Assembly (NCBI GenBank): GCA_963729625.1
Contig: CAVSOU010000005.1
Location: 1 to 64,000 of the forward strand
Direction of reading: 5' to 3'
DNA: 64,000 nt
DNA from: an uncultured bacterium
GTDB lineage: Bacteria; Chloroflexota; UBA5177; JANWHV01
This document shows, piece after piece, positions 4,937-13,669 of this stretch. The notes under the pieces were generated by a model that had not been told where the DNA came from, did not search any database, and saw nothing but the letters and a program-made list of their open reading frames with translations. A program made the position numbers and the translations under genes. Within the stretch, counting starts at the first letter, position 1; every line of letters begins with the position of its first letter.

Positions 4937-5602
<666 letters not shown>

Positions 5603-5603
5603 A

Positions 5604-6240
5604 ATGTTGCGATCTCATCTGGATCCTGGTCCTTGGACTCTTGCTGCGCGTGTTCCGCGCGCCCTCGCTGCCGGGCTGCGCGCCCGCGCCCATCTCTCGT
5701 GTTCGGGGACAGCCTCAGCGCAGGCTATGGACTGCAGGCCGGCCAGGGCTGGGTCAGCCTGCTTGAGGAGACTGAAAGAGGAAGGTTACGGGTAGCGCGT
5801 GGTGAACGCCAGCGTCAGCGGCGAGACCACCGCCGGTGGCGCGGGCCGCCTCCCGCGCGCCCTGGCGCAGCACCACCCTGACATCCTGATCCTGGAGCTG
5901 GGCGCCAATGACGGCCTGCGCGGCCTGCCGCTTGGCAGCGCACGCGGCAACCTCTCCGCCATGATCGCGGCATCCCAGAAAACCAGGGCAAGTGTCCTGC
6001 TGGTGGGCGTCAGCTGCCGCCCAACTACGGCCCGACCTATACACAGGGTTTTCGTGAACTTTTCGGGCAGCTCGCCCGCGACCACGGGACCGCGCTCGTG
6101 CCGTTCCTGATGGAGGGCGTGGCGCTCAGGGATCATCGCTGATGCAGGCCGATGGCCTGCATCCCAACGCGGCGGGTCAACCGCTGCTGCTCGACAACGT
6201 CTGGCGCGCACTGAAGCCATTGCTCTCGGCAGTGAGGCGA
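5604..6240 (+). CDS. tesA: Arylesterase / acyl-CoA thioesterase I (SGNH), frameshifted
   Basis: VFGDSLSAGYG, VVNASVSGETT, LELGANDGLRG, MQADGLHPN blocks. Conserved ybbA-tesA arrangement. End approximate. Confidence 0.85.
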
Positions 6241-6262: not shown

Positions 6263-7926
6263 ATGGATAAGATCTGGCTCAAGGAATATCCGCCGGGAAT
6301 GCCCGCCGAGATCGACCCCGATCAGTATTCCTCGCTCAAGGCGCTGGCCGAGGACTGCATGTCCCGTAACGCCACGCGCAATGCCTACGTGCAGATGGGC
6401 ACGTCGATCACCTACGGGGAGCTGGACGAGCCTCTCGGCGCGCTTTGGGGCCTGGCTGCAGCAACAGGGGCTTGAGAAGGGCGAGCGGCTCGCGATCATG
6501 CTGCCGAACCTGCTGCAGTACCCGATCGCCATGTTCGGCGCGCTGCGCGCTGGGCTTGTGGTGGTCAACACCAACCCGCTCTATACCGCGGACGAGCTAC
6601 GCCACCAGCTCATCGACTCCGGCGCCACAGCGATCGTCGATCCTGGAGAACTTCTGCACACGTGTCTGGCGACGTGGTCGATGACAACGGTCAAGCACGT
6701 CATCGTGACCGGCGTTGGGGACATGCTGGGCTTCCCGAAGAGCCTGCTGGTCAACTGCGTACTCCGCTACATCGCAACCAGGTGCCCCGCTGGCGCATCC
6801 CCGGCGCCGTGTCCCTGCGCTCGATCCTCGCGGACGGCGCAGCCGCGCCGCTCACGGAAATCGAGCTCGAGGGTGAGGACCTGGCGTTCCTGCAATACAC
6901 CGGCGGCACCACCGGCATCTCCAAGGGCGCGATGCTCAGCCATCGCAACATGGTCGCCAACGTGCTGCAGTGCCGCGCCTGGCAGAGCAGGTAAGGATCG
7001 AGCATGCCACCTACATCATCGCGCTGCCGCTGTATCACATCTTCTCGCTCACGGCGAACTGCCTGCTGTACATGCTCGGTTGGCGGCTACGGCGTTCTGA
7101 TACCGAACCCGCGCGACTTCCCCGCCTTCGTCAAAGAGCTCATCCGCCATCCACCCAATACCCTCGAACGGCGTCAACACGCTATTCAACGCTCTCATGA
7201 ACGCCCGGGTTTTGACAAGATCGATTTCAGCCACCTGGTGGCCACGGTCGGCGGCGGCATGGCGGTAAAGGCCAGTGTCGCCGAGCGCTGGAAAGCTCAC
7301 CGGCTACCCGCTCACGCAGGGCTGGGGGCTCACCGAAACGTCCCCTGTGGCCGCCGTTGAGAAACTCAACGTCGCGGAGTGCTCAGGTGCCATCGGCCTT
7401 CCGCTGCCCTCCACCGAGATATCCATCCGCGGCGATGACGGGGCAGACCTTGGCATCGACAGCCTCAGGAGAAATCTGCGTGCGCGGACCTCAGGTCATG
7501 CGCGGGTACTGGCGACGCGACGATGAGACCGCCAAGGTCATGCTACCGGACGGCTGGCTGCGAACCGGTGACATCGGCCGCATGGATAGCCGCGGCTACG
7601 TGTTCCTGGAAGATCGCAAGAAGGACATGATCAGCGTGTCCGGCTTCAAGGTCTATCCGAACGAGGTCGAGAGCGTGGCGGTCCGCTGCCCCGGCGTGTT
7701 CGAGGCAGCGGCAGTGGGCGAGCCCAACGAGCACTCCGGCGAAGTCGTCACCCTGTATGTCGTAAGGAAGGATCCGTCCGTCACCGCGGAGGCGATCATC
7801 GCGTTCATGCGTCAATCGCTCACCTCTTACAAGGTCCCCCGCAAGATCTACTTCCGCACGGAACTCCCAAAGACCAACGTTGGCAAGATACTCAGGCGGG
7901 CTTTGCGAGACGGCGACGTTTCCTAG
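6263..7926 (+). CDS. fadD: Long-chain-fatty-acid--CoA ligase, frameshifted
   Basis: [67 protein letters not shown]. Confidence 0.85.
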
Positions 7927-8821
7927 CGACATTTAGCTCGCGGAATGCGTCCCGTGACGCGTAGCCTCCCTTCTGGCGGCGCTCCTTCAACGGTGGGGAG
8001 ATCGGCGCAAATATGTACGCGCCAACCCCGACGTGCACCGCCTTTGCACGTCGTTGAGGATTAACAGCATGCGCAGCCACCCACTCATCGACGGTCGAAA
8101 GTAGGGCCGCGGCGCGTTCCCTAAACTCCTTCAAGAATAACGGAAGAAGCGTTGGGTCTAGGGATACCACGTCTGCGCCCGTGTATAGAGCGGCCTTCCC
8201 GCTCAGCGTGGATTCGTGCACGCTATTCCCAAATTCGGCGATTTGTCGACTAAACGCGCGCAACGCGCGCTCGCGTGAGCCGGCGTCGAGATTGCGACTG
8301 GATAACAGCTTGTACCTGCCGTCCCTAGTTTTCGAGATTGCGCCCATGCGAAGCAATTCCCGCGCTATGGCGGTCGGCGTGATATCCGCTGCGCATTCAT
8401 GCACGAGTGCGGAAAATGAATCGTCGGCTCCATCCAATGGAAGATCCCTTGGAAGACCGTTGCGTTTCCTAAATCTAGCATCTTGACGCCAAGCCGAAAT
8501 TACGCGAAAGGTGGGCTGTTGTTTGGCGTCGCGCGAATATTTCTTCTTTTTTTCGACTTTGCCCGTCAGTACGCTTGCCAAATCCTTGCGACTTAGACCG
8601 GTTGCTGCAGCAATGCGGGAAAGCGTGGGACGATTCCCCTCCAAAGATATTGCGCTCGCGGCAGCCCGTGCGAACTCCGTTTTAGCAAGGAGCAGGAACT
8701 GCTCCACTCCGACTCCACTGTGGAATACTGACCTGGCGACGGGTGACAGCGCTATTGCGCAATCGGTTGAAAACTTGGCTGACAGATCTTCGCTAGCCCG
8801 TGACGAAACTCTATTTTTCAT
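7892..8821 (-). CDS. DUF6502-like protein (paralogue 1, HTH-like motif present)
   Basis: [37 protein letters not shown]...PRDLP, SFSALV, C-terminal VDEW...VGVGAYIF. Overlaps the fadD stop convergently. Confidence 0.75.
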
Positions 8822-8842
8822 TGGCTAGTGCGACTCGACTGT

Positions 8843-9592
8843 CTACATCTCGTCATTAGTGGAACATATTGAGAAAAACCCAGCTCCCGCACGAATCCCT
8901 TTCTCCTTCTTCTTGCCATTGGGTGCCCTGGCCTGCAACCAGTCGTCAACTTCCTTCAAGTGAACAAGACTTCGAGCCCGAAGGAACTCCAAGAAAGGAT
9001 CCACCTCACTCGCGGGCAAATTTCGTCTCTCTGCTATTCTCCAAAATTGGACTGTGGGCGAGCCGTCCAATTGCACCTTGCTGATAATTGAATTGATAGT
9101 AGAAGAGGCGTCCGCCAGAAATCTTAAACTGGGCTCAAACGCGAGCGTCGTTGAGGTACCAACGTGCAGGAATTTCTTCAGGAGCTTTATCCTATTCCCC
9201 GGAAGGCGGCGCACGTTTCCGTATTTCCGGAGTTGATCTGCAACGTCAGCGTAATCCAGATGTGAATCCACGCTCGCGACAAGCGATGCGAATGATCTTT
9301 TCCCACTGATAGGCAGCACTCGCGGATTACCTTCATCGTCGAGATAGTCAGGGTACTTCGTCCAGTTCGCGACTATTTCGCTCAGTGCCTGTGTCGCGCT
9401 AAGAGCCGTGATCTTTACTCGCAAGTCTGCCGTGGCCGCATCCGCCCACTCTGCCGTAAGAATGCTTTTTGCCGTGCGTTCATCAACGCCTGAGGCCGCC
9501 AGAAACTTCGCTATTGGCGCTAACAAACTGCGCGCAAGCTCCGTCTTCGTTGCGGGAGGTATTAGGCGGGTCCTGGATTTGGTACTTGCCAT
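8843..9592 (-). CDS. DUF6502-like protein (paralogue 2, lacks the HTH-like segment)
   Basis: ATG 9592 with AAAGG upstream. LLAPIAKFLAASGV, IVANWTKYPDYLDDEGNPRVLP, SFASLV, VDDWL...AGAGFF align by eye with the other two paralogues. Confidence 0.7.
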   Translation of the reverse strand: MASTKSRTRLIPPATKTELARSLLAPIAKFLAASGVDERTAKSILTAEWADAATADLRVKITALSATQALSEIVANWTKYPDYLDDEGNPRVLPISGKRSFASLVASVDSHLDYADVADQLRKYGNVRRLPGNRIKLLKKFLHVGTSTTLAFEPSLRFLADASSTINSIISKVQLDGSPTVQFWRIAERRNLPASEVDPFLEFLRARSLVHLKEVDDWLQARAPNGKKKEKGIRAGAGFFSICSTNDEM

Positions 9593-9726
9593 GCGTTTCC
9601 GACCTTTCTGTTGGTGCGGCCTCGGAAGGCTAGATTGAAGCTCTGTGGGAGGAATAGAGCAAACGGACAAATTTGGCTGAATCTGATGGAAAGCCAGCTA
9701 GGTATTTGAGTATCAACTGCCCAATA

Positions 9727-9754
9727 GAAAACGGCCGCTCAAGGCGGCCGTTCT
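9727..9754 (-). terminator. Intrinsic terminator after the repeat-protein gene
   Basis: Stem AACGGCCGC/GCGGCCGTT (9730-9738 and 9744-9752), 5-nt loop, followed by TTCTATT on the minus strand. Confidence 0.7.
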
Positions 9755-9796
9755 AAGGTCTGGTCGAAGTACGGTGACTTCGATCCGCTATTGATG

Positions 9797-10279
9797 CTAC
9801 CGAGCCTTAAGGCCCGTTCCTATGCTGCCGGCGGCATGCACACCCGTGCCGATGCTGCCCTGCGCTTTGATTCCGGTGCCGATACTGCCAGCGGCGTGCA
9901 CACCCGTGCCGATACTGCCCTGCGCTTTGATTCCGGTACCGATACTGCCAGCGGCATGCACACCCGTGCCGATACTGCCCTGCGCTTTGATTCCGGTGCC
10001 GATACTGCCAGCGGCATGCACACCCGTGCCGATACTGCCCTGTGCTTTGATTCCGGTGCCGATACTGCCGGCCGCCTTGGACCCAGTCCCAATGCTGCCT
10101 TGCGCCTTAGCGCCAGTTCCGATACTCCCGGCAATTACCGCGTCATGAACGGAAGTTGCACCCGAGACGATGTCTGTGGTCTGGAGATCCGTGCTGTTCT
10201 TAGCATAAGCGGTTGCGGAGATCGCAACTGTCGCAAGCAAGCCGATGGTCAAGTGTTTGAAAACAAAAGCATTCTTCAT
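9797..10279 (-). CDS. Secreted GSIGTG tandem-repeat protein (160 aa; signal peptide + 11 x 10-aa repeats)
   Basis: RBS AGGGGAG before ATG 10279. Sec signal MKNAFVFKHLTIGLLATVAISATAYA. Repeat-unit substitutions are synonymous in this frame. Terminator downstream. Confidence 0.85.
   Translation of the reverse strand: MKNAFVFKHLTIGLLATVAISATAYAKNSTDLQTTDIVSGATSVHDAVIAGSIGTGAKAQGSIGTGSKAAGSIGTGIKAQGSIGTGVHAAGSIGTGIKAQGSIGTGVHAAGSIGTGIKAQGSIGTGVHAAGSIGTGIKAQGSIGTGVHAAGSIGTGLKAR
9800..10129. repeat. Coding tandem repeat: 11 x 30 bp with a higher-order 60-bp unit
   Basis: The 60-nt lines starting at 9841, 9901, 9961 and 10021 are near-identical. Confidence 0.95.
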
Positions 10280-10339
10280 CTCGCTCCCCTTGACGCTAGT
10301 CGAGACATGCACCCTTTTTGGGTCTGCATGCCGGCACGA

Positions 10340-10388
10340 ATATGTTCAAGACATATGTAATGTACCAACGCGGGGATGAATAAGTCAA
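10340..10388 (-). promoter_or_regulatory. Putative sigma70 promoter with overlapping palindromic operator
   Basis: Minus strand TTGACT (10388-10383), N18, TACATT (10364-10359) with a TGn extension. ATATGT-N5-ACATAT at 10340-10356 spans the predicted +1. Confidence 0.5.
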
Positions 10389-10437
10389 AGCCCAAACACC
10401 TCATCGGCTTCGAGCCACGCAGCTAAGGGGGGGGGGA

Positions 10438-10458
10438 TGGTCGTCGGCGCAACGACCA
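10438..10458. other. Short inverted repeat right after the stop of DUF6502 paralogue 3
   Basis: TGGTCGT-N7-ACGACCA next to a G10 run (10427-10436). No U tract. Confidence 0.35.
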
Positions 10459-10460
10459 GT

Positions 10461-11411
10461 TCAGTCCGTCAGGTCCTTCAGCGGCTTATGCTGCTCCGCA
10501 GCATTGACGTAATGAAAGATTCCAATGCCTGTGGCCAAGACTGCTGGGCTCTTCGGATCTAACGGACAACGTTTCGCCAGCCAGTCGTCGATATCCGCGA
10601 TCAAATGCCGCACGCGCTCTCGTGCATAGCGATCAAATTCCGCAACCTGCGCCGGGTCCAATCCATTGTCTGCAAAGACCGCACGTTCAAGGCGTTTGGA
10701 GACTCCTGATTCTATCGGCGCCCCAGCTGCCGGCATTCCAGTTGTTTCGGCCGCCGCTGTTGGTGTGGCGCCGGCTAATGCTCTAAGAACCTGTGCAGCC
10801 TCTAGCGCCCCGGTGTTACTGAGATTGTATTCCAGGGTATTTGCCAGGTTCGCCAGGGTGTTGCCGAAGTACTCAAGACTTACAGGAGACATTGGTTCGG
10901 GTGTGACGTAAGTACGCGACGTCACTTTTAGGAATTTCTCCCCAGACTGAACCACTACACCAGCCCTAGTTAGGTCTTCTAGCAGTAGCACGGGGTTTAC
11001 GCTCGGATCTGCACGCCTTACCAAATCAGTGAAGCACCTGCCGGATGTTGCATCGTAGTCGATCTCTAACGGCACACCATAGGGCCCTAGATACCGAGGA
11101 TCCGTATTCCAGAGGTGCAATACTTCGGCCAATGCATGCGCATGAGTAGGCGGCGGCGGGGTAAGCAGATCCTCATTATCGACATATCGGTCGACATCAC
11201 GGCGCGGCACGCCGGTCGCAAGGGACACGCGGCTTCGGGTCAGCGGCCCGGGCCGAGCAATGCCATCACGAATGGCGCTCTCGACGTAGACACCCTTGAT
11301 GACCTCGACAAACTCATCGTGCCGTACGCCGGCGCGAATGAGGATCTTCACCAAGGGTCTCAGCACCTTGCGGAAGGCGTGGATCAGGTGGCTGCGCGGA
11401 TCTTCGCTCAT
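10461..11411 (-). CDS. DUF6502-like protein (paralogue 3, HTH-like motif present)
   Basis: LRPLVKILIRAGVRHDEFVEVIKGVYVE, TRSRVSLATGVPRRDV, WNTDPRYL, RLERAVF, IDDWL...GIGIFHY. Starts 9 bp after the dgt stop. Confidence 0.8.
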   Translation of the reverse strand: MSEDPRSHLIHAFRKVLRPLVKILIRAGVRHDEFVEVIKGVYVESAIRDGIARPGPLTRSRVSLATGVPRRDVDRYVDNEDLLTPPPPTHAHALAEVLHLWNTDPRYLGPYGVPLEIDYDATSGRCFTDLVRRADPSVNPVLLLEDLTRAGVVVQSGEKFLKVTSRTYVTPEPMSPVSLEYFGNTLANLANTLEYNLSNTGALEAAQVLRALAGATPTAAAETTGMPAAGAPIESGVSKRLERAVFADNGLDPAQVAEFDRYARERVRHLIADIDDWLAKRCPLDPKSPAVLATGIGIFHYVNAAEQHKPLKDLTD

Positions 11412-11420
11412 GGATAGTCC

Positions 11421-12589
11421 TCAGCTTCGCTCGCCGGGCACGAACATGCGCTCGTGCTCCCGGATAGCGTAACGATCTGTCATGCCGGCCACGTAGTCCG
11501 CCACCGCGCGGGCCCGTCCAGCCTCGCCCTCCCGCTCCTGCAGCACCAATGCTGCGGCATGGTGCTCCTCGGGCATGAGATTCACGTCATCAAAGAAAGC
11601 CTGAAAAAGCGCCTGCACAACGCGGCGTGCCTTCAGCGTCATGCGCTGCACACGGTAGTGCCGGTAGAGGTTCTCGCGCAGGAACTGCTTGAGCTCAAGG
11701 TGCTGGGCTCGGGTCTGCTCGCTCATGCCCACGAGGTGGCCGGGCTGTGCGCGCACGTCGTCAATGGACTTCGGATCCGCATCGTCAATACGCGCCGTGG
11801 TGGAGCGCACGACATCCACGACCAGGTGGTTGATCATGCGCCGCACCGTCTCGTGCACGAGGCGCCGGCCCTGCAGCGCGGGATATTTCTCCTGCACCAC
11901 TTCCAGCTGCATGCGCACCAGCGAGAGCTCGCGCAGCTGCTCCAGCGTCAGCAGGCCGGCCCGCAGGCCGTCATCCACGTCGTGGTTGTTGTAGGCGATC
12001 TCGTCGGCAAGGTTAGCAAGCTGTGCCTCAAGGCTGGGCTGGCGACGCTCGATGAAGCGAAGGCCGACGTCCCCGAGCTTGCGGGCGCTGTTGAGCGAGC
12101 AGTGTTTGAGGATCCCCTCGCGGCACTCGAACGTAAGGTTCAGGCCGTTGAACTCCGCGTACCGCTCCTCCAGCTCATCGACGATGCGCAAGGACTGCAG
12201 GTTGTGCTCAAACCCACCATAGTCGCGCAGGCACTCATTCAGCGCGTCCTGTCCGGCGTGCCCGAACGGCGTATGCCCCAGGTCGTGCGCCAGGCAGATC
12301 GCCTCGGTCAGTGCCTCGTTGAGGTTCAGCGCCCGGGCGATCGAGCGGGCGATCTGCGCGACCTCCATCGAGTGCGTCAGGCGCGTGCGATACAGGTCGC
12401 CCTCGTGGTTGACGAACACCTGCGTCTTGTAGACCAGGCGCCGGAAGGCGTTGGAGTGCACGATGCGGTCGCGGTCGCGCTGGAACTCATCGCGGTACTG
12501 CGGCGGCGGCTCCGGATGGCGGCGACCGCGGGAGAGTTCACTCCGGGCGGCGTACGGCGCGAGGTTTGCGCTGTCGGTAGCCGCGTCAT
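11421..12589 (-). CDS. dgt: Deoxyguanosinetriphosphate triphosphohydrolase
   Basis: [58 protein letters not shown]. Indel near the start. Confidence 0.93.
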
Positions 12590-12592
12590 GGC

Positions 12593-13669
12593 CTACCCGA
12601 AGTGCGCAGCAAGTGTGGCGGCCAGTACGTCGTCAGGATAGTCCGCGGTAAAGCGGGCCCGGCCGAGCGCCTCAAGCAGCACGAGCCTGATCCGGCCACC
12701 CTTCACCTTCTTGTCCACACTCATGTACTGGCGGGCGCGCTCGGCGCCGATCCGCGGCGGCGGCGTCGCAAGCCCCGCACGATCCAGTAGCTCCGCCACC
12801 CGTTTGACGTCTGCGGCCGCGATCAGACCCAGGCGCGCCGACATGTCGGCAGCGATGACCATGCCGGCCGCGACCGCCTCGCCGTGGAGCCACTGCGTAT
12901 AGCCGGTGGCGGCTTCTATCGCGTGGCCGAAGGTATGGCCGAAGTTCAGCAGTGCCCGCTCGCCCTGCTCGTGCTCATCACGCAGCACGACCTGGGCCTT
13001 GAGCTCGCAGGAGCGGTGGATCGCATGGGCGAGCGCCGCGCGCATCCAGGCGCAGCAGCGCATCCAGGTTCTGCTCCAGCCACGCCAGGAAGTCCGCATC
13101 CAGACACGAGCCGTACTTGATGACCTCGGCAAGGCCCGCCCGCAGTTCGCGGATCGGCAGGGTCGCCAGGGTCGAGTGTCGGAGATCACCGCACGGGGCT
13201 GGTGGAAGGCGCCGATGAGATTCTTGCCGCCCGGGTGGTTGACGCCGGTCTTGCCGCCGACCGAGGAGTCCACCTGCGCCAGAAGCGTGGTGGGAACCTG
13301 CGCAAAGCCGACGCCGCGCTGGTAGCAGGCGGCGGAGAAGCCCGCGAGGTCTCCAACCACGCCGCCTCCCAGGGCCAGCACGATGCTGTCGCGCCCGAAG
13401 CGGTTGGCCACCAGCACGTCGAGGACGCGCGAGACATTGTCCAGCGTCTTGTACTGCTCGCCATCGGGCAAACGCAGGTCAACGATGCGGCGGTCCTTGA
13501 GCGAGGCGGTCACCTGATCGGCGTACAGCGGACCCACGGTCGTGTTGGTAACCAGCAGGATGTCCTGTGCGCTCACGTAGGCAGGCACCGCGTGGCCTTC
13601 GGCCAGCAGCGATTGCCCGATCAGGATCGGATAGGCGCGTTCACCCAGGGCGACATCCAGCTTCAGCAC
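12593..13669 (-). CDS. aroB: 3-dehydroquinate synthase
   Basis: [53 protein letters not shown]. Compensating indels mid-gene. Confidence 0.95.

Follow-up and report, generated by a model that had tools for sequence, protein, structure and literature searches.

A low-GC island of DUF6502 paralogues and an exported decapeptide-repeat protein as a lineage-specific expansion of a widespread two-gene module

Layout of the locus

The window, a 64,000-nucleotide stretch of DNA from an uncultured bacterium of the Chloroflexota, carries an island of four open reading frames, all on the minus strand (7892-8821, 8843-9670, 9797-10312 and 10461-11411). In 400-nt windows, GC content is 0.487-0.603 within 7800-11399 as against 0.61-0.745 in the flanks, whose genes encode an AMP-binding enzyme (fadD-like, split over several frames), an HD plus HD_assoc protein (dgt-like), a DHQ synthase and a shikimate kinase. 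The open reading frames, the GC windows and the families of the flanking genes thus confirm what an earlier note on this DNA had described, namely four co-oriented low-GC genes between fadD-like and dgt-like genes, and the observation of an island of regulators and a repeat gene stands. None of the four genes encodes an enzyme, peptidase, importer, export channel, nucleator or envelope target. The features of the island are as follows.

7892..8821, minus strand: DUF6502 paralogue A, 309 aa; Pfam 87.7 bits; convergent with the fadD-like gene
8843..9670, minus strand: DUF6502 paralogue B, 275 aa from TTG 9670; Pfam 37.9 bits
9726..9752, minus strand: intrinsic terminator of the repeat gene; 9-bp GC-rich stem, 5-nt loop, TTTTCT
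9797..10279, minus strand: exported repeat protein, 160 aa; start ATG 10279 within the open reading frame 9797-10312, stop 9797-9799
9800-10129, minus strand: 11 decapeptides, GSIGTG invariant
10130-10201, minus strand: spacer of the repeat protein, 24 aa
10202-10279, minus strand: signal peptide, 26 aa, ending AYA
10284..10290, minus strand: ribosome-binding site AGGGGAG, read from the sequence, 4 nt before ATG 10279
10359..10388, minus strand: candidate sigma-70-like promoter of the repeat gene; TTGACT, 18 nt, TACATT with TG; 9/12 consensus matches
10427..10436, minus strand: C10 homopolymer in the spacer between paralogue C and the repeat gene; one base shorter in two runs
10461..11411, minus strand: DUF6502 paralogue C, 316 aa; Pfam PF20112 77.7 bits; directly upstream of the repeat gene

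All three paralogues score above the Pfam cut-off of 27 bits, so that the membership proposed for them in DUF6502 holds, and the motifs that had been noticed as common to them correspond to invariant columns of their alignment (P27, W111, G122, P124, F136, L139, V140, D245, W247, G265 and G267). Paralogue C, at 41-45% identity to the family representatives P0002, P0003, P0006, P0007 and P0009, is the island copy nearest the canonical members; its start lies 9 nt past the stop codon of the dgt-like gene, which is overlapped by GAGGA. Paralogue A is 54% identical to representative P0001. Paralogue B is very diverged, with best BLAST matches of 22-26% identity and a Pfam match covering profile positions 90-255 only, and gaps in the paralogue alignment show its N-terminal helix-turn-helix part to be shortened. 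Its real start is more likely ATG 9592, with AAAGG upstream, giving 249 aa.

The translation of the fourth gene reads as the earlier note had it: a Sec signal, a 24-aa spacer and 11 decapeptides in which a GSIGTG core is joined by alternating IKAQ/VHAA linkers, the full linker order being AKAQ, SKAA, four IKAQ/VHAA pairs and finally LKAR. The signal peptide was called from its n/h/c regions and from AYA by the -3/-1 rule; as the protein has no Cys, it is not a lipoprotein. Its only Pfam match is a sub-threshold one to Pentapeptide_2 (14.6 bits, cut-off 26.4). At the DNA level, Tandem Repeats Finder reports a period of 60 with 4.1 copies and 96% matches, and a degenerate pattern of three units gives 9 matches as against 0 in 100 shuffles. 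Within the 18-nt hexapeptide part six columns vary, all of them third codon positions and every change silent, whereas nine columns of the 12-nt linker part vary, first and second codon positions included. This difference indicates that the repeat frame is translated and that the hexapeptide is under selection.

That the gene has its own ribosome-binding site and terminator was likewise borne out. The terminator hairpin (fold -21.2 kcal/mol, z -2.89) is absent from the list produced by the consensus scan; equivalent hairpins lie 3' of the repeat genes in metagenome loci L135, L145 and L169. A sub-threshold Rfam match at 9721-9754 coincides with this hairpin. The promoter candidate is the only promoter-like site that the consensus scan gave in 7700-11700 and is weak on its own, since shuffles average 1.8 sites. 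Contigs from RNA libraries (metatranscriptomes) of three studies cover parts of all four genes, although such contigs may contain DNA, so that coverage is no proof of transcription. Record 14 of X2 spans 11233-11463 in paralogue C, and the repeat gene is covered by X3 records 22 (10082-10705) and 21 (9816-9966) and by X2 record 12 (10198-10768). The letter at 10427 is omitted in the X2 (RNA library) and X1 (DNA) contigs and kept in X3.

The canonical module and the array loci

Elsewhere, DUF6502 genes have a characteristic exported partner. From 80 genome loci, 4 were dropped for lack of DNA; among the 76 with at least 200 nt downstream, the next open reading frame carries a strict GGIGGTG-type motif in 69, an FGS[IV]xVN hallmark in 68 and one or the other in 73. 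The three plasmid loci inspected all have the same pair of DUF6502 and motif-bearing partner, with a 4-nt overlap. The link between DUF6502 and GIGGTG-like proteins, which the earlier note had offered, therefore holds. All 44 aligned partners are DUF5666 (PF18914); the usual partner is a lipoprotein, with the motif near-invariant just past the lipid anchor. A structural model of the canonical partner (pLDDT 85.9; S1/Unr-like) shows a large folded chain of OB beads, its motif reaching into the first strand (E34-41). In L055 and L059 a DUF6502 gene stands beside a motif-less partner, so that the regulator can do without the motif. An inverted repeat, TGGGA-N6-TCCCA, is present in 57/79 DUF6502 upstream regions, where it wraps the -10 box, which makes DNA binding by the family plausible. 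No paper was found on the DUF6502 family or on its two-gene module with DUF5666.

The hexapeptide of the island array is the signature motif of this usual partner, GGIGGTG there and GSIGTG here, and a graded series of loci joins the two forms. The partner has a single motif at most loci, two in L071, L078 and the plasmids, and three with a 10-aa period ahead of the OB domains in G405 C11; in L063 it is a 59-aa protein with the motif only. L128 combines two DUF5666-type domains (hhalign 96.3%) with 17 or more motifs, and motif arrays stand alone in the window, L102 and L121. When 78 metagenome loci were retrieved by the repeat pattern alone, seven had one or two DUF6502 genes beside 3 to 17 or more tandem decapeptides, so that the association with repeat genes in other genomes, on which the earlier note had made its proposal depend, is seen. 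The order of regulator(s), repeat gene, terminator and two more regulators recurs in L128, L135, L145 and L169, and L128, L135 and L169 share the aroB-dgt/fadD locus with the window; the arrays of L102 and L121 lie at another locus, downstream of a BolA-like gene (called from its translation).

Over the eight array loci the hexapeptide takes the forms GSIGTG, GSMGTG, GIVGTG and GIIGTG, while the linkers differ (IKAQ/VHAA, AAAS, VTTQ, ASSN, AHSD, GERN, xEGE and VHSN). Within the L128 protein the linkers are 2 or 4 residues long, giving units of 8 and 10 residues, and the L135 and L169 proteins end exactly past the last hexapeptide. The repeat protein is no stand-alone invention but a reduced DUF5666 partner, as the array protein of the syntenic relative L128 keeps two DUF5666-type domains.

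In island and module alike, a DUF6502 gene immediately precedes, in the same orientation, the gene of an exported protein whose G-x-x-G-[TS]-G motif follows the signal peptide. They differ in that the island has three paralogues where the module has one, and in that its partner lacks the DUF5666 domain and the lipobox Cys and has the motif amplified to 11 copies. Where stop and start overlap in the module, the island has a 181-nt spacer with its own candidate promoter; its first regulator is attached to the tail of a housekeeping operon, and it lacks the TTTGGGA-N6-TCCCAAA operator. In the window, no site matches that operator with two or fewer of 14 mismatches, and two sites match with three, both inside coding DNA; the seven array loci have none at three or fewer.

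Likeness to peptide-controlled regulators

The earlier note had taken the RRNPP/Phr systems of Firmicutes as the closest analogue. In these systems (Phr, PapR, NprX) a regulator gene is followed by one for an exported pro-peptide, which is cut and re-imported; the receptors belong to the TPR proteins, and each pro-peptide is charged and present in a single copy. The island has the same gene order of regulator and exported product but lies in a diderm host, and the Pfam search found no TPR domain in its proteins. HetR and PatX are closer.

The DUF6502 model combines a helix-turn-helix and a winged helix with a C-terminal part made of helices. When the AlphaFold2 model of paralogue A (pLDDT 85.3, pTM 0.74) was searched, HetR of filamentous cyanobacteria (PDB 4YRV, 4IZZ, 4HRI, 4J00), whose RG[ST]GR inhibitors are PatX, PatS and HetN, was the only full-length structural match. 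HetR chains hold Foldseek ranks 1-6 (probability 0.92-1.00, TM 0.36-0.43), with E-values of 5e-3 and above, short of 1e-3. The top 4 of 996 chains in VIA-align are all HetR (4yrv_B, Z 8.9, 222 aligned, rmsd 5.7; 4izz_A, Z 8.0), where by the program's own note a Z below about 8-9 can reflect a common arrangement. Sequence homology was not detectable: among the 25 Pfam families listed (E up to 10), HetR is matched by 0/107 DUF6502 members, and it is absent among the matches listed in the PDB profile search.

An inverted repeat is the binding site of HetR, according to PDB entry titles, and the putative one of DUF6502. According to PMC12756182, the PatX precursor is exported by Sec and cleaved in the periplasm by the peptidase PatP. 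Its RG[ST]GR peptides switch HetR off, the peptide HRGTGR binding at 88 nM and blocking DNA binding; the controlling peptide is short and has a G-[ST]-G core. Such a Sec-exported precursor in a diderm provides a Gram-negative precedent. In contrast, the island motif is uncharged (GSIGTG as against HRGTGR), DUF6502 mostly has a large lipoprotein as its partner, and its hosts lie outside the cyanobacteria.

Alternative roles for the array

By analogy with HetR and PatX, the polyprotein could be exported by Sec and cut in the periplasm to G-x-x-G-T-G peptides that re-enter the same or adjacent cells and bind at least one of the DUF6502 paralogues in its C-terminal part, altering its DNA binding. 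We give this somewhat less weight than the reading preferred below. In addition to the HetR fold and the shared G-[ST]-G core, it draws on the retention of the hexapeptide while linkers vary, on motif-only partners (L063 and the window), on proteins that end at the last hexapeptide, and on the crowding of 9/24 invariant or near-invariant partner columns into the first 50 residues. DUF5666 proteins not adjoining DUF6502 genes lack the motif (4/4), but this may reflect only descent. Against it, the two families are joined by no sequence profile, the Foldseek E-values fall short, the island has no peptidase or importer gene, no cleavage site is conserved between loci, an uncharged Gly-rich hexapeptide makes an unlikely high-affinity ligand, and most partners are lipoproteins of 300-520 aa where a beta strand begins with half of the motif. 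A multi-core RiPP precursor with modifying enzymes encoded elsewhere, suggested by identical repeated cores with an invariant Thr, is scarcely credible: an island devoid of enzyme genes lends no support to this alternative of the earlier note, and bacterial RiPP precursors do not usually carry a Sec signal peptide.

The decapeptides might instead build a beta-roll, solenoid or amyloid-like envelope fibre with turns at GTG and linker positions 1 and 3 inward, DUF6502 only regulating; this seems improbable. RTX nonapeptide beta-rolls and curli/Fap-type amyloid repeats are likewise exported proteins of short Gly-rich tandem units with turns at Gly. The linkers follow an in-out pattern, with A, V, I, L, S or G at position 1, one of A, S, T, G and R at position 3, and polar, variable residues at 2 and 4; in the window the Ala at position 3 is invariant despite silent changes, and the 20-aa super-repeat would match two half-turns. 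Yet the unit lengths within L128 would be poorly tolerated by a regular solenoid, the linkers of other loci are Ser/Gly/Asp/Glu-rich as in disordered spacers, the array has no Asp for Ca2+ and no family match beyond the sub-threshold Pentapeptide_2, and no dedicated secretion genes, channel or nucleator lie in the island. It is very improbable, too, that deletion and slippage have reduced a DUF5666 partner to a functionless leftover. The OB domains of syntenic L128 are indeed missing and the 60-nt units, 96% alike, point to recent slippage, but frame, signal peptide, ribosome-binding site and terminator are all intact, the 11 hexapeptides show silent changes only, OB-less arrays occur at a second locus (L102, L121), and RNA-library contigs cover the gene.

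A proposed role for the array at full length

The reading we tentatively prefer, at somewhat less than even confidence, has the array exported and active at full length, under the control of the regulators. Paralogue C would be made from the aroK-aroB-dgt transcript and, probably with A and B, would bind island DNA and set the transcription of the repeat gene at its own promoter. Its protein would be exported, cut after Ala26 and remain full length in the periplasm or outside, presenting 11 copies of the element by which canonical partners may act on some envelope component; the array would thus be multivalent and probably flexible, and would not give rise to signalling peptides. That the exported protein itself has a role fits the canonical partner, a large folded chain of OB beads with the motif entering its first strand. 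The graded series of partners, the motif-less partners of L055 and L059, the recurring gene order of the array loci and the silent changes in the hexapeptide also speak for this reading. The shortened DNA-binding part of paralogue B and the missing canonical operator count against it, as does the lack of an envelope target encoded in the island. It also leaves unexplained why array-type loci have 3-4 regulator paralogues, why nothing but the 6-residue motif persists in all forms of the partner, and why the nearest fold is that of a peptide-controlled regulator.

Whatever the array does, the widespread module of DUF6502 and exported partner has in this island a lineage-specific, expanded form. 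For a two-gene module that no paper was found to describe, the repeat gene and its DUF6502 copies represent a stripped-down, amplified variant.

The Four-Gene Island

Four open reading frames lie on the minus strand between an AMP-binding (fadD-like) gene and an HD/HD_assoc (dgt-like) gene, which is followed by aroB and aroK:

7892-8821, minus strand: paralogue A, DUF6502
8843-9670, minus strand: paralogue B, DUF6502
9797-10279, minus strand: repeat gene, start ATG at 10279 with the ribosome-binding site AGGGGAG just upstream
10461-11411, minus strand: paralogue C, DUF6502

Their GC content (0.49-0.60 across 7800-11399, against 0.61-0.75 outside) agrees with an earlier note on this DNA, which had described an AT-richer four-gene island between fadD and dgt. 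That note's assignment of the three paralogues to DUF6502 (Pfam PF20112) is likewise confirmed by whole-protein HMM scores of 87.7 (A), 37.9 (B) and 77.7 (C) bits, all over the gathering cut-off of 27 bits that defines membership here, with B aligning to profile positions 90-255 only; the motifs it had listed are invariant columns in an alignment of the three. The fourth product follows in the sequence the plan that the note had described, here a Sec-type signal peptide (26 aa, ending in AYA), a spacer of 24 aa and 11 decapeptides in which GSIGTG is invariant, encoded by a gene with its own ribosome-binding site and closed by a strong hairpin terminator, which is also the single match, sub-threshold, that Rfam returns in the island.

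The array is well beyond chance, with a three-unit pattern matching 9 times against 0 in 100 shuffles and Tandem Repeats Finder reporting a period of 60 at 96% identity. Within the 18-nt part encoding the hexapeptide, all six variable columns are silent third positions, whereas the linker varies at first and second positions too, so the frame is translated and the hexapeptide constrained. The repeat protein matches Pentapeptide_2 at 14.6 bits, below the cut-off of 26.4, and no other Pentapeptide or RTX-type family in Pfam; searches of NCBIfam, PADLOC and PHROGs with the four island proteins give nothing below E 0.01. The island's four genes, three of them DUF6502, include no maturation enzyme beside the repeat gene, which speaks against the RiPP-type precursor that the earlier note had offered as an alternative.

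Two features upstream of the repeat gene may be recorded here. A 14-nt stretch of its 5' leader at 10320-10333 is 93% complementary to 9832-9845, 9952-9965 and 10012-10025, which encode TGVHAA; judged from the nucleotides, it could base-pair with the repeat coding region in the mRNA or be the relic of an inverted unit. A run of ten C (10427-10436) follows the stop of C and precedes the -35 box of the candidate promoter (10359-10388) from which the repeat gene would be read; it is one base shorter in contigs of a DNA run (X1) and an RNA-library run (X2), either through homopolymer error or because the tract is variable in length.

The Canonical Module

Elsewhere, the typical neighbor of DUF6502 is a DUF5666 OB-fold lipoprotein encoded directly downstream. 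On three plasmids (Azospirillum, Methylocystis and Rhizobium etli), the DUF6502 gene shares a 4-nt overlap with a gene annotated "DUF5666 domain-containing protein," whose product combines a signal peptide with two D-x-G-[IL]-G-G-[TS]-G motifs; on the Methylocystis plasmid (L015), an "outer membrane beta-barrel protein" gene (8282-8965) follows the pair, and the island has none. In species-representative genomes, a scan with a five-sequence alignment gave 532 confirmed relatives and 80 loci, a biased sample confined to a single branch of the family, with the plasmid loci belonging to a different one. Four of the 80 were left out as too short downstream. In the remaining 76, the ORF after DUF6502 carries GG[ILVTM][GSADI]G[TS]G in 69, the hallmark FGS[IV]xVN in 68 and one or the other in 73. 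Together with the plasmid pairs, these counts substantiate the statement in the earlier note that DUF6502 lies beside proteins with GIGGTG-like motifs. The three exceptions are L041, where a transposase-like ORF (5188-5661) is inserted between the DUF6502 gene and its displaced partner, and L055 and L059, where a different lipoprotein of 255-283 aa follows, with neither DUF5666 nor the motif.

All 44 aligned partners carry DUF5666, and in their alignment the lipobox cysteine (C19) and one glycine of the motif never vary; the first 50 residues hold 9 of the 24 columns that are invariant or nearly so. As modeled by AlphaFold2 (pLDDT 85.9), a canonical partner consists of OB beads strung together in the manner of ribosomal protein S1; a disordered tether (residues 19-32) leads to the motif (30-36), and the motif continues into the first strand. 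The motif is absent from all four DUF5666 proteins examined that do not adjoin a DUF6502 gene (two in the source genome, two in genome G403), a difference that, at n = 4, may reflect descent alone.

From Single Motif to Array

Most partners have one copy of the motif, and those of L071, L078 and the plasmids have two. In a Burkholderiales MAG (L224:958-2910, contig C11 of G405), the DUF5666 partner, which adjoins a second, weaker DUF6502 copy (111 bits), has three decapeptides at a 10-residue period before its first OB domain, GGIGGTGVEP, GGTGGTGIDP and GGIGGTGQSA. In a Methylococcaceae MAG (L063:3191-3424), the ORF after DUF6502 encodes no more than 59 aa, in which GGIAGTG follows a lipoprotein signal and precedes a short tail rich in Cys and Lys.

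A scan of metagenomes for G-x-[IVM]-G-T-G occurring three times at 10-residue spacing yielded at least 121 stretches in at least 78 loci. Among the matches listed, the majority of loci are unrelated pentapeptide-period G-x-V-G-T runs, and 71 of 78 have no DUF6502 gene within the contig DNA examined; in 7 of 78, the family HMM finds a total of 11 DUF6502 ORFs beside arrays. An association of DUF6502 with repeat ORFs in other genomes, on which the earlier note had let its proposal depend, thus exists in those seven among the matches listed.

Repeat units of array loci from metagenomes

L102: GSMGTGAAAS
L121: GIVGTGVTTQ
L128: GIIGTGASSx, at least 17 units
L135: GIIGTGAHSD
L138: GIIGTGGERN
L145: GIVGTGxEGE, 16 units
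L169: GIIGTGVHSN

In the array protein of L128, an N-terminal part of 144 aa escapes Pfam yet aligns with the profile of the DUF5666 partners (hhalign 96.3%, E 1.5e-9). Because L128 keeps this DUF5666-type part, the island's repeat protein is best read as a partner reduced to a signal peptide and an amplified motif. Its GSIGTG, present 11 times, is one residue shorter than the strict 7-mer, and the two are bridged by GGIIGTG (L043), GGIAGTG (L063) and the GIIGTG arrays; common descent of hexapeptide and canonical motif, judged on six residues, is likely. As in the canonical module, a gene of exported type lies directly downstream of a DUF6502 gene (C) on the same strand. The differences are equally clear: canonical genes overlap or nearly touch, whereas C and the repeat gene are 181 nt apart, and canonical partners have DUF5666 and the lipobox C19, whereas the repeat protein gives no DUF5666 match in Pfam at E up to 1 and contains no cysteine in its 160 residues, hence no lipobox Cys.

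Operator and Expression

Of 79 canonical regions upstream of DUF6502 genes, 57 contain TGGGA-N6-TCCCA placed around a TATAAT-like -10 box, itself about 12 nt downstream of TTGACA. This is the core of the palindrome TTTGGGA-N6-TCCCAAA, and its presence indirectly supports DNA binding by DUF6502. The start codon often stands directly after the palindrome; at many loci between L017 and L096, the ATG is 3-5 nt after the operator and the palindrome centre 9-16 nt before the start, an arrangement in which transcripts would be leaderless or nearly so. Two tandem operator copies precede the DUF6502 gene of L063, and two adjacent palindromes those of L055 and L059.

The best sites in the window have 3 of 14 mismatches and lie within coding DNA, and the seven array loci have no canonical operator at three or fewer mismatches. 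Nor is a shared palindrome visible by eye in the spacer that precedes the repeat gene in the window, L102, L121 and L128. The first regulator gene of the window, like that of L128, directly adjoins the stop codon of dgt, so that it is probably read as part of the housekeeping transcript. Contigs of three metatranscriptome runs from three studies (X2, X3 and X5) cover parts of all four genes at an identity of at least 99%, two of them running from the last part of C into the beginning of the repeat gene; the gaps (for example, 9392-9759) count neither way. As such contigs give no strand or level and may include DNA carry-over, they are a hint of expression rather than proof.

Origin and Spread

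A whole-genome search finds DUF6502 in the source genome in the island's three copies only. There is none in 40 relatives, and none over the cut-off in 400 further genomes sampled from the phylum, where one match reaches 25.9 bits. A profile of the paralogues recovers at least 5001 cluster representatives at E up to 1e-3 and 278 at 1e-30, and DUF6502 was met in records labelled Pseudomonadota, Desulfobacterota and Nitrospirota. A word-index protein search links paralogue A to one relative (P0001) and the repeat protein to none; against the 40 relatives, the repeat protein has four weak matches (E 6e-6 to 3.5e-4, 26-35% identity).

The island's locus recurs in metagenome contigs. L128 has aroB, dgt, two DUF6502 genes and a repeat gene, and L135 and L169 have a repeat gene, two DUF6502 genes and a convergent fadD; these contigs place the locus in uncultured relatives as well, so that the source genome is not the island's sole carrier. 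In L102 and L121, the DUF6502 and repeat-gene pair is downstream of a BolA-like gene, named from its translation alone. No direct repeats flank the island as a mark of insertion. Four genomes labelled "same genus" (G001-G004, loci L009-L012) have a dgt-like gene 44-47% identical to that of the window, with neither fadD nor aroB within 1.5 kb of it. This means either that the genus is very deep or that the contig is atypical of its bin, whose estimated contamination is 5.2%.

The neighboring genes also show irregularities. The fadD-like gene (6263-7926) is broken over several reading frames, and, compared with contigs of other runs, both DNA and RNA-library, the window shows single-base indels at 7077, 7165, 7205, 7291-7292 and 7461; the breaks are thus probably assembly errors of this genome rather than signs of a pseudogene. 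The middle part of aroB (12593-13669) is odd and of low complexity.

The Predicted DUF6502 Fold and How the Motif May Act

The AlphaFold2 model of paralogue A (pLDDT 85.3, pTM 0.74) has a helix-turn-helix at about 37-90, a winged helix at 101-178 and long C-terminal helices. Chains of HetR are its only full-length structural matches. They fill the first six rows of a Foldseek search (about 300 columns, probability 0.92-1.00, TM 0.36-0.43, E of 5e-3 or more) and, with four entries, the top of a second comparison (Z 8.9, 8.0, 7.5 and 7.5; 217-229 residues, rmsd 5.6-5.7); in an independent all-against-all structure alignment, HetR (Z 7.5, 217 residues) is level with local winged-helix matches. 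PF03574 (Peptidase_S48) and PF18460 (HetR_C), presumably the Pfam families of HetR, give no match at E up to 1 in any of the window's three DUF6502 proteins and are not among the 25 families listed for 107 DUF6502 members at E up to 10, and a sequence-profile search of the PDB returns designed repeat proteins over a 21-residue stretch and no HetR. With a match in predicted structure and no sequence-profile link, HetR would be the nearest known fold rather than a demonstrated homologue. The comparison with RRNPP/Phr signaling made in the earlier note does not hold up, as RRNPP regulators join a TPR peptide-binding domain to their helix-turn-helix and no TPR family matches any of the three paralogues in Pfam at E up to 1.

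Two readings fit the island, one in which the exported protein is displayed at full length and one in which it is a peptide precursor. Our tentative preference is for the former, in which the DUF6502 regulators would control an exported array that functions uncut, presenting the family motif multivalently. The precursor reading is modeled on PatX, which acts on HetR by way of Sec export, cutting by PatP and binding of an HRGTGR peptide at 88 nM (PMC12756182). By analogy, motif peptides cut from the array would return to the DUF6502 regulators, and the structural match to HetR, the G-[ST]-G core common to both motifs, partners consisting of the motif alone, variable linkers and additional regulator paralogues are all consistent with this. 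That such feedback nonetheless appears doubtful reflects the lack of sequence homology to HetR, an island that encodes neither peptidase nor importer, an uncharged motif, canonical partners that are large and folded, and DUF6502 genes whose partners have no motif. Co-folding of C (90-row alignment) with residues 77-110 of the repeat protein scored 0.00, a value that carries no weight for or against binding.

In its fullest form, the analogy would make DUF6502 the non-cyanobacterial counterpart of HetR and G-x-x-G-[TS]-G that of the PatX/PatS RG[ST]GR, joined in a loop of export, cutting and re-uptake of which the island, with 11 ligand copies and 3 receptor paralogues, would be the most amplified form; this we consider unlikely. 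A regular beta-roll or amyloid array, with which the in-out pattern of the linkers agrees, is quite improbable given the mixture of 8- and 10-residue units in L128.

Significance

Full-text search found no paper on DUF6502, PF20112, the GIGGTG/GGIGGTG motif or a HetR-like reading, and the papers among the matches listed mention DUF5666 in passing only. New here are the array-only partner, a conserved arrangement of three to four paralogues, loss of the canonical operator and the forms that bridge the arrays and GGIGGTG. The island reduces the module to its apparent essentials, regulators, a signal peptide and the motif, and is therefore a simple setting in which to study the motif's function. 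Should the regulators read the motif, peptide control of the HetR/PatX type would be ancient and widespread among bacteria, not peculiar to cyanobacteria; should the motif instead be read in the envelope, it would stand as a new short linear motif among exported proteins. Either outcome would provide a first function for two DUF families.
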